The position numbers were made by a program, and so were the translations under genes. The notes under the pieces were generated by a model. That model worked only from the letters and a program-made list of their open reading frames with translations, did no database searches and was not told the origin of the DNA. Below are positions 25,265 through 31,780 of a stretch of 64,000 bases of DNA, one piece after another. Source of the stretch: Escherichia coli (GTDB taxonomy: Bacteria > Pseudomonadota > Gammaproteobacteria > Enterobacterales > Enterobacteriaceae); the NCBI RefSeq assembly GCF_050320075.1, contig NZ_CP190018.1. One strand, written 5' to 3'. Position 1 is the first letter of the stretch. Every line of letters begins with the position of its first letter.

Positions 25265-25753
25265 TTACCAGTTGAAAGTGGGTAAATCCTGCAGACATTC
25301 AGCACCGGCATCCAGATGAATGAGACTGACGCCATAACGCCGGATGAGTGTGACAACCAGACGGCGGAACGTTCTGGACAGCCCCAGGCGTTTAAGCCGC
25401 AGAACCGGGTATGACCACGCATCGGTACGTAACAGATATCCGCTACCTGTGAAATGAATCCATTCTGATTCGCCGGTGTCATTCGTCTGATTTGACAGCG
25501 AGTACAACCAGGCATTGTCCGTTTCCGTGATATGTGCGGTACTGCAGCGTATGCCGGTAAGGGCCGCAGATGGTGGCGTGCGCTCTGCTGATGTCCGGTC
25601 AGATTCATCAACAACACGAAGGGAGTAACCGTTATCGCAGACCACGTTAATCAGTTCAGCGAGAGTAACACCATCGACGTCAACGACAATGCGCCCCATG
25701 TTCAGTGCCTGCACGTTAATGCTGTCGGCTTCCAGCGTCAGGGCCAGTTTCAT
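25265..25753 (-). CDS. YeeW-like prophage protein
   Basis: Follows the cbtA homologue with ATGA start/stop overlap at 25750-25753; true start taken at MKLALTLE. Confidence 0.55.
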
Positions 25754-26127
25754 TGTTTCGCCCACGGATGTTTACCCAGGGTAATGTTATTTACCGTTCT
25801 GTAATTGTCGCGGGCCATCAGGCCGGTTGCCCGGCGGGCCCGGAGGATATCAATACTGTTTATTAACTGAGAACGAGTACAGACGCTGAATCCCGGCTGG
25901 TCGGTACGCACCAGTGCGTATTTTTCAACGAGAAAGTTCACCGCATCACACAGTGAAATGCCTGCCTCAATATGCTGCTCAATCACACGTTCATCAGCGA
26001 ACGGTGTGTCATTCAGTGTGAGGCCGTAATGCTGGTCCAGCAGTCGGGTGAGCAGTGTCTGCCAGATGGTGACGGGAGACTGGCAATGCGATGCCTCCCG
26101 TACGTGTGTATCGGGTAATGTGTTCAT
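25750..26127 (-). CDS. cbtA: CbtA/YeeV/YkfI-family toxin (type IV toxin-antitoxin system)
   Basis: 124 aa from the internal ATG at 26127 ([15 protein letters not shown]...); family sequence and position after the antitoxin homologue. Confidence 0.85.
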
Positions 26128-26216
26128 ACTGAAGATTTTCCTGATATGCAGAGATGAAAAATGGAAAAGTGGCGTGGTGAAAGCACCAGGCCGGAGAAGA
26201 AGGTTATTCTGGAGAG

Positions 26217-26585
26217 TTACTTTTTCGTTTCGGGCGTCGGATAAACAGCCATATAAACGTAGCCACAACTGCCGAGGGTGTCGGCTTCGCAGGTCAGCCT
26301 TTTTGCATACAGCGTGACGGTATGCTGATGGCGGGGATTCAGTTCACCGCTGGTGAGCATGAGTTCCAGTTGTTTCATCAGCAGCGGAAAGGCCTGGTCC
26401 AGATGGTACGCATCCGCGTCGCTGAACCGGCCTCTGATACCGGCGCGGTCTGCAAGGTAATGCAACCGGTTACCCTCCTGCACCAGACGTGCCCCAAAAC
26501 AGGGCGTCACGGTGCAGGGCAGTCCCCACCAGGTGCGGTCGTTATTGTCGTCGGGAAGCGTTGTCCCGGGGAGTGTGTCTGACAC
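26217..26585 (-). CDS. cbeA: CbeA/YeeU/YfjZ-family antitoxin
   Basis: 122 aa; family sequence; immediately upstream of the toxin gene. Confidence 0.85.
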
Positions 26586-26664
26586 GATAAAATCCTCACA
26601 GAAAATTGGTTAAGAATGGTCCGGTGGTGGCGATAATTCTGCTCTTCTGAATGCCCTTCCAGAC

Positions 26665-26886
26665 TCAGTTCAGGGTGACGCTCATCAGCCGGACATACGG
26701 ACCAAAACTGTCCTTACGGCGTTCTGCAAACACAGCCAGCACACCGGGAATATCCTGTACTTCACGGCCGGTATATGTATCCGTGCTACCGTGCCAGCGG
26801 TATTTACCGGTACAGAACGGAAAAAGACGGGATGCAGGATGCTGACGGTGAATACGCATGGCTTCACCACGGGTGATGATTTTCAT
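26665..26886 (-). CDS. YeeT-family protein (DUF987)
   Basis: 73 aa, MKIITRGEAMRIH...; conserved position upstream of the toxin-antitoxin pair. Confidence 0.8.
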   Translation of the reverse strand: MKIITRGEAMRIHRQHPASRLFPFCTGKYRWHGSTDTYTGREVQDIPGVLAVFAERRKDSFGPYVRLMSVTLN

Positions 26887-26972
26887 GAGAATAGTCCTCC
26901 TGAATGTGAAAGTAAGAAACAGCTGAGAAAGAGAAACTGAAGTGATATGAAGGTGATTGTGACGGTGACGGG

Positions 26973-28948: not shown

Positions 28949-29158
28949 TTATTGCCTGAGAATTCCCTCACTGGCGAGATACGAATTTAGCTGTTTTCCG
29001 GCATCAGGTTCAAAATTCCAGCACCGCCAGCGTAGCTGCCCTTCGGCATTGCGGATAACCAGCCGGAAATGCGTTCCCTGGTCATCTTCAATAAGCACAT
29101 TGCGGTAAGCTGTTGTGACGGCAACCGCCTGTTCGCGTGAGAAAGGGCCTTCGGGCAA
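28949..29158 (-). CDS. Small hypothetical protein (69 aa)
   Basis: ORF with TTG start; no recognisable motifs. Confidence 0.35.
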
Positions 29159-29187
29159 TAAAACAGGGTGGCAGTCCTACATACCGG

Positions 29188-29865
29188 CTATTTTCCGATA
29201 AATTCAACGCTGGCGCCGGTGGCATTACCGTCAGCACCAACCGTGACGGTCACTTTGTCGTACGCACGGTCTTCAGGATTGAATACTTCAAACTCAACCT
29301 TATTGCCTTTTACTTCGTAAGAGCCAAAATCAGCGGTTTCTGTTGTTTCCTCGTCATATTCCCGGGCGTATGCCTGCCGGGCAGCCTGCAGGACGGAATC
29401 TTTATTAATAGTGGTCGTCTGTTTCGGGGAAAAACCGGCAAGTGATGTGACAAATTTCGGACAGACCTTCAGCATATCACCGCGGGTGAATTCCATTCGT
29501 ACACCAAATGCCTGTAAAACGGACACATCACGCTCTGCTATGGAGTGAACGGCTTTTTTGACCATTTCCGGCGCCTGTCCGATTTCCACCTCAACAGCCC
29601 TGAATCCCGTCTGCTGATTACACATTTGTGATGTGGGGATCAGGTTACCGTTAATACTGATACGGCTGCCCAGGAGCGTCTGTACACCATTCGGGCATCC
29701 CTGCATCAGGCCGGTAATACCAATCGTGCCATTTTTCAGCATTACCAGCGCCTGACCATCTTCCGTCATGGTCTGACACCAGCCGTTTTTGACAGCCCAG
29801 TTGCCGGCGGAGGCGGAGAATGATGCCACAGTGAACAGCAGGGGAAAAAGAGCTCTGGTATTCAT
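29188..29865 (-). CDS. Hypothetical secreted protein with signal peptide
   Basis: Start taken at the internal ATG (MNTRALFPLLFTVASFSASA), giving a cleavable signal-peptide-like N-terminus; about 225 aa. Confidence 0.5.
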   Translation of the reverse strand: MNTRALFPLLFTVASFSASAGNWAVKNGWCQTMTEDGQALVMLKNGTIGITGLMQGCPNGVQTLLGSRISINGNLIPTSQMCNQQTGFRAVEVEIGQAPEMVKKAVHSIAERDVSVLQAFGVRMEFTRGDMLKVCPKFVTSLAGFSPKQTTTINKDSVLQAARQAYAREYDEETTETADFGSYEVKGNKVEFEVFNPEDRAYDKVTVTVGADGNATGASVEFIGK

Positions 29866-30012
29866 GACTGACCTCTGAAATGAACGTACGGTGTTATTGA
29901 TAATGATGGAAGGTATGCAGTGACTGTTCAGGGAATGACGTAGCCGTATATTTAGTTTTCTGTTCAACATATTGTCTCCATACCTGTCGGGACGGCTTTG
30001 GCAGGCCGGCAA

Positions 30013-30693
30013 TCACAGGTTAAAGGTGTTGATAAGTTTATGGATGAAAGAGAAATGTGGCAGGGCGGAGATAAAACGCTCTTCAGCGACCAGACTGTGG
30101 ATGTGGCCTCTCCGTTCAAACCGTTCTGATGTCAGGCTGACTGATTTGATATCTGCCAGAGGAAAGACCTGCAGTTTTCCCTTCTGTAACGCGATCAGAT
30201 ACCAGCTACCGCTGTAATAAATGAGCCGGCAGGGCTCCAGTGACGGATACCATCGCTCAGTCATCAGAGAGATGTGGATACACTGTCTTATTGCCAGGAT
30301 GAGTTGCGAGAAACACTCGGGGAACGTTGCAGTGATATCCGGCGCCGGTAGCCAGATAAGGCAGGGAGAGGGCTCCTGGTTGTCGGTAAGACAGGTTATC
30401 AGTCGTCCGTTCCGGAGCGGAAGTATCCGTGCGATCCCGGTATTCTGTATAAAAGAAAGCATTTCAGGGATCGCACCTGGGCTGCTCTGTCGTCTGAGGC
30501 TGTACCTGCCATTTCTGTACTCTAAATCCAGGTGAACCAGACGCTGATGAAAATCGCGCTGTAAAGTACGTTCTGTAACGCCAAATTCATCTGACAGTGT
30601 TTTTAGTGACAGAGATTCTCCGGCCATCAGTCGGCTGATAATGAGTGATAAGCGAACCGCCAGGCGATCATGCCGGGAACGATTATCAGACAT
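30013..30693 (-). CDS. HTH/WYL-type transcriptional regulator (YfjR-like)
   Basis: 226 aa; N-terminal HTH (LSDEFGVTERTLQRDF); same position as yfjR in CP4-57. Confidence 0.7.
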   Translation of the reverse strand: MSDNRSRHDRLAVRLSLIISRLMAGESLSLKTLSDEFGVTERTLQRDFHQRLVHLDLEYRNGRYSLRRQSSPGAIPEMLSFIQNTGIARILPLRNGRLITCLTDNQEPSPCLIWLPAPDITATFPECFSQLILAIRQCIHISLMTERWYPSLEPCRLIYYSGSWYLIALQKGKLQVFPLADIKSVSLTSERFERRGHIHSLVAEERFISALPHFSFIHKLINTFNL

Positions 30694-30895
30694 AGATGTG
30701 CACTCCGTAAGAAAACATCTTTTATTTCATGATGTTATTATGCATCATGATGTTGAAAGGATGTGTCGCATCCGGATAATCAGGAATAAAATGCAGCAGA
30801 AAAAATATTCTTTTAATTATCTGATTTTTAAGCATGATTTCATAAAAAGAAGAATGCTCGTTAATCCAGCGACACATCCTGTCGGCGTGAGTGTG

Positions 30896-31780
30896 TCAGA
30901 ACAGACGCTCCCACAGTGTGATCAGCAGGTGGATAATGCGGTCCCGGGCTTTACGCAGAAGCTGTAACATCCAGGCCGGAAAACTGAAACGGGCAACGGC
31001 GACGTCAAAACTTTTCCCGATGGTTTCACCAAAAGTCTGTTGTGCGTGTTTCTGGGCCTGTTCAGAGCGGTTTTCTCCCCGGATATGTGAATACACCGCG
31101 CTGGTTGCCTGTGGTGGCAGTGCGTGGATCATCAGCGACACAAACGCCGGAAGGTTCCAGCCGACAGGTGCAGCAACGGAGAGTACCGGAAATGATGAAG
31201 GGAACAGGGTTGCCACCCGGGCTGTCACCGTCGCCAGTGAGAGCGCCTGCTGACGGGACGGGCATTTTTCTGTGGCATTCCATTCTTCAGCAGGAAACAC
31301 GCGATCGGCATGGCTGAGAACAAACAGAAAACGCGAGGGATCTGCGCCTTCATTCAGTAAAAACTGATGCATGGTAATGTCGGCGGCATACGCGCGTTCA
31401 TCTGCCCGCAGGATCCAGATAATCAAATCCACTTCCGGCAGTAACTGACGGTAAAGCGCCCGGTATTCCTGATCATGTTGCGGCGTCTCTCCAATGCCGG
31501 GCAGATCGACCAGCGTCATTCTGCGTTCACCGATCTGCAGGGTAAGACGATGAGCCTGGCGGGTGCAGCCGTTCAGGGGATGTGTGGCACAGATATGGGA
31601 CTGAAAAATAGCATTACACAGGCTACTTTTGCCGGTGCCGGATTTACCCATAATGCCAATCACGGGTTCGTAATGAATAACGCTGTGGAGATGTTCAAGA
31701 ATTTTCTGACGAATTTCTTCAGGAAGAAACGTCAGATATGATTTCACTTGTGCGGAGAGGGAAGAATGGCTGAATGACAT
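30896..31780 (-). CDS. Ribosome-associated-type GTPase (YfjP/YeeP/YkfA family)
   Basis: P-loop GKSGTGKSSLCNAIF; 294 aa. Confidence 0.8.
   Translation of the reverse strand: MSFSHSSLSAQVKSYLTFLPEEIRQKILEHLHSVIHYEPVIGIMGKSGTGKSSLCNAIFQSHICATHPLNGCTRQAHRLTLQIGERRMTLVDLPGIGETPQHDQEYRALYRQLLPEVDLIIWILRADERAYAADITMHQFLLNEGADPSRFLFVLSHADRVFPAEEWNATEKCPSRQQALSLATVTARVATLFPSSFPVLSVAAPVGWNLPAFVSLMIHALPPQATSAVYSHIRGENRSEQAQKHAQQTFGETIGKSFDVAVARFSFPAWMLQLLRKARDRIIHLLITLWERLF

Follow-up and report, generated by a model that had tools for sequence, protein, structure and literature searches.

A CP4-like island-end cassette with a type IV-family toxin–antitoxin pair beside a leuX repeat in Escherichia coli

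Within a 64,000-nucleotide stretch of Escherichia coli DNA (contig NZ_CP190018.1 of assembly GCF_050320075.1), which we refer to as the window, we found twelve intact genes in an unbroken run on the minus strand (25048-31780), delineated by the open reading frame (ORF) listing, profile searches and the PGAP annotation of a near-identical reference. Among them is a CbtA/CbeA toxin–antitoxin (TA) pair, and past the last of these genes lies a short copy of the 3′ end of the tRNA gene leuX. This run is very likely an intact and ordinary island-end cassette of the P4-integrase-type (CP4-like) islands of E. coli and Shigella, situated at the attR-proximal end of a leuX island of ~76 kb. The cassette is already known: RefSeq annotates each of its genes, and the TA pair is a member of the family on which type IV was founded. 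We see its value as that of a landmark, since cassette and 23-nt leuX repeat jointly define where the ~76-kb leuX island ends distally; they also show the tandem accumulation of islands at the leuX tRNA.

Toxin–antitoxin genes and the leuX repeat at the island end

A preliminary description of the window, made from its letters, had named nine minus-strand genes, namely those for a GTPase, a WYL-type regulator, a DUF932 protein, an antirestriction protein, a RadC-like protein, YeeT, the CbeA antitoxin, the CbtA toxin and YeeW. These genes hold with their coordinates, strand and family assignments (all pass the Pfam thresholds; Table 1), and protein alignments, which had been named beforehand as the means of refuting the description, back every family, with blastp identities of 36-98% to the K-12 homologs. 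The list was nevertheless incomplete, as it lacked a 225-aa ORF and a DUF905 gene inside the interval and a DUF957 gene just outside it, which bring the count to twelve. The end of the cassette, which had been placed at 25265, has accordingly to be moved, since the run goes one gene further, to the DUF957 gene at 25048.

The CbtA homolog matches its Pfam profile over positions 1-112 of 112 and is 86% identical to K-12 CbtA, while the CbeA homolog is 92% identical to K-12 CbeA and matches the solved YeeU structures (PDB 2H28 and 2INW) at ~3e-77. The antitoxin gene lies upstream of the toxin gene on the same strand, 89 nt apart, and an alignment shows F65 of the CbtA homolog to be shared by CbtA, YpjF and YkfI, in all three of which this residue is needed for FtsZ binding (PMC5624674). 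With the profile matches to PF06755 (3.1e-63) and PF06154 (1.1e-54), these features bear out the proposal that the pair belongs to the CbtA/CbeA type IV family. The ATGA overlap that had been noticed between the toxin gene and the YeeW-like (DUF5983) gene is also real: the start codon of the latter (25753-25751) and the toxin stop codon TGA (25752-25750) share two letters within 25753-25750, and the same overlap is seen in K-12 cbtA/yeeW. DUF5983 homologs start with MKLxL, which supports this ATG as the start of the window gene. The RNA structure of the antitoxin–toxin spacer is not unusual (folding z-score -1.05).

The tRNA-Leu fragment that had been reported about 700 bp from the cassette end proved to be a 23-nt copy of the leuX 3′ end (GTTCGAGTCCGGCCTTCGCACCA, 24576-24554 on the minus strand), which equals the last 24 nt of leuX less one G and lies 689 bp from 25265 and 472 bp beyond DUF957, the last gene. 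ARAGORN reported no tRNA in the whole window, because the piece is too short for it; the remnant was located by eye and by pattern search. A 7.6-kb query that spans the repeat and the cassette (24400-32000) matches the E. coli YZLc1-3 chromosome (NZ_CP123240.1) with 100% identity; the whole 64-kb window differs from this chromosome by six mismatches, and PGAP annotates every cassette gene there. YZLc1-3 has an intact leuX with an adjacent tyrosine integrase gene at a distance of ~76 kb, oriented as attL would be. The core of the repeat (its first 18 nt) has exactly two matches in the loci searched, the remnant and leuX itself 76 kb away. This leuX-adjacent integrase, which lies beyond the window, is of the P4 family, with the Arm-DNA-bind_3 (arm-type DNA-binding), Phage_int_M and Phage_integrase domains and 36% identity to K-12 IntA. 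Because the intact leuX and the integrase are 76 kb away and the core repeat recurs only there, we place the cassette at the integrase-distal (attR) end of a tRNA-integrated island of ~76 kb, beside a direct repeat.

In strain W5-6, the identical 23 nt are followed directly by a second integrase gene (58% identity to the first) and by Hachiman-like genes, and the homology to the query, which in other genomes begins within ~50 bp of the repeat, begins exactly at the repeat in W5-6. Because a second integrase stands right after the repeat in that strain, we read the remnant as the junction of tandemly accreted leuX islands. In the window, fragments of an IS3-family (insertion sequence, IS) transposase at 23786-24453 adjoin the leuX repeat, at the place where W5-6 has the second integrase, followed by the Hachiman-like HamA and a helicase. 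The IS3 fragments in the second-integrase position point to tandem islands at leuX, of which the second has lost its integrase in the window. On this other side of the repeat, PGAP annotates the IS3 fragments, an Eco31I-family restriction-modification system, McrBC and the yjhU-yjhI genes. The yjh genes of the window are presumably, going by the K-12 map, part of the leuX-associated KpLE2 region.

By analogy with the K-12 proteins, the CbtA homolog would bind the H6/H7 loop of FtsZ, for which F65 would be needed, as well as the flat face of MreB, and this binding would block division and elongation and give rise to lemon-shaped cells. The CbeA homolog would counter the toxin without binding CbtA, by bundling and stabilizing FtsZ and MreB filaments, which is the type IV mode of action; for the window protein this mode is assumed from its 92% identity to K-12 CbeA, whose bundling of FtsZ and MreB filaments is given in summary form in PMC5624674. 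The antitoxins of the three K-12 loci cross-neutralize one another's toxins, and the operon is without autoregulation (PMC5371832). The ArdB/KlcA homolog should blunt type I restriction, and the RadC-like protein is predicted to be a JAMM metalloprotease like LfgB, a K-12 RadC-like product for which protease activity has been reported (PMC10846083). As judged from these homologs, the cassette probably helps to establish and retain the island and may also modulate host stress responses.

Gene content of the cassette and its relation to the K-12 elements

The GTPase retains its G1 (GKSGTGKS at residue 45) and G3 (DLPG at residue 92) motifs intact; its blastp identity is 36% with YfjP and 35% with YkfA. 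Over its full length the regulator is 43% identical to YfjR (blastp); its WYL domain is recovered both by Pfam (5e-05, 23.7 bits against a cutoff of 21.8) and by the PADLOC WYL model (2.6e-18), and its helix-turn-helix (HTH) part matches HTH_11 at 6.7e-05, under the Pfam cutoff of that profile. The DUF932 protein is 74% identical to YfjQ and 75% to YafZ (blastp). The antirestriction protein matches a PHROG anti-restriction family (5.7e-62) and is 65-73% identical to YfjX and YafX, and the RadC-like protein, with an intact JAMM motif (HNHPSGEVTPSKAD), is 98% identical to YeeS. Pairwise ratios of nonsynonymous to synonymous substitution rates (dN/dS) against the K-12 homologs are 0.05-0.34, the RadC-like gene giving 0.05 against yeeS. 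The guanine-plus-cytosine (GC) content is 50-59% in the cassette block and 29-38% in its flanks. PADLOC defense models hit only the WYL regulator and, weakly, the GTPase (a LeoBC-like match). Long antisense ORFs on the plus strand (27978-28853, 26985-27515, 27449-27895, 30891-31253 and 30641-30967) were set aside as spurious, having neither a Pfam match nor a PGAP annotation.

Table 1. Features of the cassette and of the adjoining island end
Feature	Position	Strand	Basis
GTPase, YeeP/YfjP/YkfA type, 294 aa	30896-31780	minus	Pfam MMR_HSR1 2.6e-15; PGAP 'GTPase'
HTH and WYL-domain transcriptional regulator, YfjR-like, 226 aa	30013-30693	minus	Pfam WYL, PADLOC WYL
Secreted orphan protein, 225 aa	29188-29865	minus	Signal peptide; without family match
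DUF905 protein, YkfF-like, 69 aa	28949-29158	minus	Pfam DUF905 5.7e-31; 62% identity to YkfF
Terminator-like hairpin between DUF905 and DUF932, 13-bp GC-rich stem and U-rich tail	28899-28928	minus	Pattern scan
DUF932 protein, YfjQ/YafZ-like, 272 aa	28041-28859	minus	Pfam DUF932 1.1e-52
Antirestriction protein, ArdB/KlcA family, YfjX(LfgA)/YafX-like, 161 aa	27464-27949	minus	Pfam Antirestrict 7.6e-37
RadC-like JAB/JAMM metalloprotease (predicted), YeeS/LfgB-like, 158 aa	26973-27449	minus	Pfam RadC 5.1e-45
DUF987 protein, YeeT-like, 73 aa	26665-26886	minus	Pfam DUF987 2.7e-39; 93% identity to YeeT
CbeA (YeeU) type IV antitoxin, 122 aa	26217-26585	minus	Pfam CbeA_antitoxin (PF06154) 1.1e-54
Antitoxin–toxin spacer, 89 nt	26128-26216	minus	93% identity to the 88-nt K-12 cbeA-cbtA spacer
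CbtA (YeeV) toxin, 125 aa	25750-26127	minus	Pfam CbtA_toxin (PF06755) 3.1e-63
Full-length DUF5983 (YeeW) protein, 162 aa	25265-25753	minus	Pfam DUF5983_N 1.8e-31, DUF5983 6.2e-21
DUF957 protein, 65 aa, last cassette gene	25048-25245	minus	PGAP 'DUF957 domain-containing protein'
Terminator-like hairpin closing the cassette, 3′ of DUF957	24994-25020	minus	Pattern scan
Two gene fragments (truncated HTH regulator, truncated hypothetical) between cassette and island end	24716-24963	minus	PGAP pseudogene calls
Terminator hairpin 3′ of the leuX remnant	24538-24519	minus	Pattern scan

The DUF5983 protein has no sequence match in PDB, and its AlphaFold model (predicted local distance difference test, pLDDT, of 83) is without a significant structure match there. 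The DUF957 protein has no match in the current Pfam copy; tblastn shows that K-12 keeps a fragment of such a gene 3′ of yeeW (70% over 30 aa). For the 225-aa protein no match was obtained in Pfam, NCBIfam, PHROGs or PADLOC, nor a sequence match in PDB, and its AlphaFold model, of reasonable confidence (pLDDT 79), has no Foldseek match to PDB at E <= 0.001. This protein displays an N-terminal signal peptide and four invariant cysteines, and its relatives form ~60 clusters, which are confined to Enterobacteriaceae. Its gene occupies the position that unrelated small lipoprotein genes hold in the K-12 cassettes. The two gene fragments past the DUF957 gene have no Pfam match.

We compared the cassette with K-12 CP4-44, CP4-57 and CP4-6 by blastp and tblastn and find that, judged by sequence, it is a mosaic, with a CP4-44-like TA half, a middle formed by DUF932 and antirestriction whose similarity (to the CP4-57 and CP4-6 proteins) is intermediate, and a regulator and a GTPase that are distantly CP4-57-like. 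The claim that it reproduces the conserved K-12 cassette therefore stands at the level of families but not as exact synteny. With CP4-44 it shares the order RadC, DUF987, antitoxin, spacer, toxin and YeeW, with identities of 98%, 93%, 92% and 86% for the first four proteins of this series, along with the near-equal spacer (89 versus 88 nt, 93% identity), the ATGA overlap and F65. It differs in that K-12 YeeW is truncated to 64 aa (65% identity), as against 162 aa in the window, in the intact DUF957 gene that follows DUF5983, and in residue 15 of the toxin, which is Cys in place of the K-12 Arg. Upstream of RadC, K-12 has yeeP (a pseudogene), isrC, flu and yeeR, whereas the window has the intact GTPase, regulator, 225-aa, DUF905, DUF932 and antirestriction genes and no adjoining Ag43 gene. 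CP4-57 (yfjP-ypjF) and CP4-6 (ykfA-ykfI) share with the cassette the GTPase, DUF932, YfjR-type regulator, DUF905, antirestriction, RadC, DUF987, antitoxin and toxin families, in a one-strand array that ends at the island boundary. In these two elements, however, DUF932 comes directly after the GTPase, whereas in the window it comes after DUF905, ypjK/yfjS/yfjT or yafY/ykfB stand where the window has the unrelated 225-aa gene, the antitoxin–toxin spacer is 20 nt instead of 89 nt, DUF5983 and DUF957 are missing, and the identities are only 36-78%. The exact gene order of K-12 is thus not found in the window, with DUF932 relocated, another gene between the regulator and DUF905, and no flu or yeeR.

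Alternative origins and functions

Some match to the query is present in 5170 of 5426 complete E. coli genomes (~95%), at a median of three places per genome, and at least 80% of the 7.6-kb query lies in one place in 1614 of them (~30%). Cassette DNA is matched by 22 of 72,556 plasmid records, including several of megabase size that are probably chromosomal, and by one of 50,697 phage records, in which the match is a 3.2-kb unannotated fragment. The cryptic-prophage setting given in the preliminary description survives as a historical label, but the cassette is nearly absent from sequenced phages. This near-absence is one of the points in favor of an unlikely alternative, namely that the cassette corresponds, on the chromosome, to the leading region of conjugative plasmids, and that CP4-like islands are, or derive from, conjugatively mobilized elements and not prophages. 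In such a region, establishment and anti-defense genes are transcribed towards the origin of transfer (oriT) and expressed first in the new host. Published leading regions gather antirestriction, TA and uncharacterized genes on one strand (PMC11541004), and the cassette resembles them as a one-directional array of small genes with an ArdB/KlcA antirestriction gene, a TA pair and members of the DUF905, DUF932, RadC and DUF5983 families. Homologs of the DUF932 protein (~60% identity) and of the antirestriction protein each occur in at least 5000 plasmid records (87% and 79% predicted conjugative, respectively), and those of the RadC protein in 2336 (71%); DUF5983 homologs are found in 241, of which 41% are predicted conjugative and a further 44% mobilizable. 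For the antirestriction and RadC genes the plasmid link is drawn from these counts only, and for DUF905, DUF932 and DUF5983 gene contexts were read. Distant DUF5983 homologs (35-47% identity in a representative search) sit in plasmid transfer regions, in the contexts DUF5983, DUF932, NikA-like and relaxase; DUF5983, DUF932 and IncFII RepA; and PsiB, PsiA, PemK, DUF905, DUF5983, NikA-like, relaxase and TraY. Homology in these loci was confirmed by tblastn, similarity to the cassette at the DNA level being confined to the DUF932 gene. The IncF plasmid pRM9975-2 carries the series ssb, DUF905, parB-like, psiB, hok, DUF932 and traM, and its leading-region genes all point to the transfer origin. 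Against a leading-region origin, CbtA and GTPase homologs are rare on plasmids (66 records, 52% predicted conjugative, and 75 records, 33%), and the cassette is chromosomal and bounded by a tRNA repeat, in an island with a P4-family tyrosine integrase beside the tRNA gene. The annotation of the window and of the island lists neither a relaxase nor nikA, and no oriT, ssb or psiB was found near the cassette; a scan for oriT-like inverted repeats between DUF957 and the island end (24400-25100) reported none, a weak negative, as it also missed the two hairpins that the pattern scan gave there. The common gene families may moreover reflect exchange between mobile elements and not the same mode of transfer. 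We consider it rather unlikely that the DUF905, DUF932, ArdB/KlcA, RadC and DUF5983 genes serve establishment or anti-defense, with transcription running to the attR-proximal end and expression coming first after entry, and that the tRNA-integrated 'cryptic prophages' of E. coli descend from, or are, conjugatively mobilized islands; if so, the full-length DUF5983, the DUF957 and the 225-aa secreted proteins would be uncharacterized players. The cassette may be more like a leading-region establishment island than anything phage-like, a minority view to which we give limited credence. If true, a leading-region origin changes the view of the 'CP4 cryptic prophages' and makes DUF932, DUF905, DUF5983 and DUF957 candidate establishment or anti-defense genes.

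That the cassette is instead part of a P4-like prophage or satellite that has decayed, with its genes as phage-derived morons, appears improbable to us. The P4-family integrase beside a tRNA gene, a YfjJ/YagK-like gene nearby (34576-35307), the K-12 annotation of homologous regions as cryptic prophages and the PHROG families matched by eight of the ten cassette proteins scanned all speak for it. The PHROGs, however, include prophage-predicted regions, and such matches are therefore not independent evidence; the annotated island has no capsid, tail, lysis or P4 sid/psu/delta genes, and the single phage record noted above is all that the phage collection offers. We are more doubtful still about a three-component module of CbeA, CbtA and DUF5983, in which the translationally coupled full-length YeeW would modulate the toxin and would have been overlooked since K-12 YeeW is truncated. 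The stop/start overlap in the window and in K-12, the prevalence of the full-length 162-aa form in the large DUF5983 clusters (2305, 2827 and 1085 members) and one annotated protein with both CbtA and DUF5983 domains are consistent with it. However, the K-12 CbtA/CbeA pair is active although its YeeW is truncated, YpjF and YkfI belong to functional TA pairs whose modules have no DUF5983, and many representatives of the DUF5983 family are fragments, which suggests frequent gene loss. Because the distant DUF5983 homologs are found in plasmid transfer regions and not beside CbtA genes, we downgraded DUF5983 as an obligate third TA partner. The gene fragments just downstream (24716-24963) and the many IS elements and pseudogenes of the surrounding island might point to a non-functional, decaying remnant, a reading that is scarcely credible given the twelve intact ORFs, the low dN/dS, the intact catalytic motifs and the 459 E. 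coli records that match the query at >=95% identity.

Several observations also weigh against the island-end cassette of CP4-like type, which we prefer to these alternatives. Toxicity, neutralization, antirestriction and protease activity are all inferred from homologs, and the physiological role of such TA pairs is unsettled in the literature, island stabilization not having been demonstrated for them. Residue 15 of the CbtA homolog is Cys, whereas MreB binding by K-12 CbtA requires Arg at this site. YpjF and YkfI, however, also have Cys15 and still inhibit elongation (PMC5624674), and R15 is therefore not a family-wide requirement. The GTPase and the regulator are only 36-43% identical to their K-12 homologs, which leaves functional equivalence weak for these two. 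Finally, promoter-like sites (10 versus 6.9 +/- 2.8 in shuffled sequence) and terminator-like sites (10 versus 6.4 +/- 2.9) show no excess; the transcription units predicted below are therefore drawn from two strong hairpins and a K-12 operon precedent alone.

Transcription signals and the surroundings of the cassette

All twelve genes are oriented towards the island end. The hairpin between DUF905 and DUF932 (-28.5 kcal/mol, z-score -4.29) and the one that closes the cassette (-20.8 kcal/mol, z-score -4.46) were each equaled by 0 of 200 shuffles. The former may split two transcription units or act as an attenuator. The arrangement suggests as units the GTPase gene by itself, the regulator with the 225-aa and DUF905 genes, and DUF932 through DUF957, each of the last two ending at a hairpin. 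The K-12 counterpart of the last unit, yfjXY-ypjJ-yfjZF, which covers the antirestriction, RadC, DUF987, antitoxin and toxin genes, has been described as a single operon (PMC10846083). An Rfam scan of 23500-33500 at a permissive threshold gave nothing above threshold and no IsrC-like small RNA; a c4-a1b1 candidate in the regulator/225-aa intergenic region (29969-30012, plus strand) was rejected as probably a chance match, with 18.5 bits against a gathering score of 46.7 and E = 0.6.

Just beyond the leuX repeat lies a low-GC (29-38%) defense cluster (15532-23553) with McrB, McrC, an Alw26I/Eco31I/Esp3I-family type II restriction enzyme, a Dcm-type cytosine methyltransferase and an adenine methyltransferase. 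Between this cluster and the yjh genes, at 7463-13374, ISCro1 (IS66 family) is found beside an mtnK-mtnA-fuculose-phosphate-aldolase cluster. At the opposite end of the cassette, a low-GC gene for a 376-aa hypothetical protein (31965-33095, plus strand; no Pfam match) diverges from the GTPase gene and is followed by an AT-rich stretch with no annotated gene up to ~34500. The region 34576-38710 holds more CP4-like and island genes, namely those for the YfjJ/YagK-like protein (30% identity to YfjJ; annotated as of the 'inovirus Gp2 family'), a restriction endonuclease and an H-NS paralog, together with IS256 fragments. The rest of the leuX island, which lies partly within 40001-64000 and otherwise beyond the window, features two autotransporters, a dnd/dpt phosphorothioation modification-restriction system, a MazF-like fragment, a phosphoethanolamine transferase, many IS remnants and an integrase pseudogene, the last of which suggests more than one accretion event.

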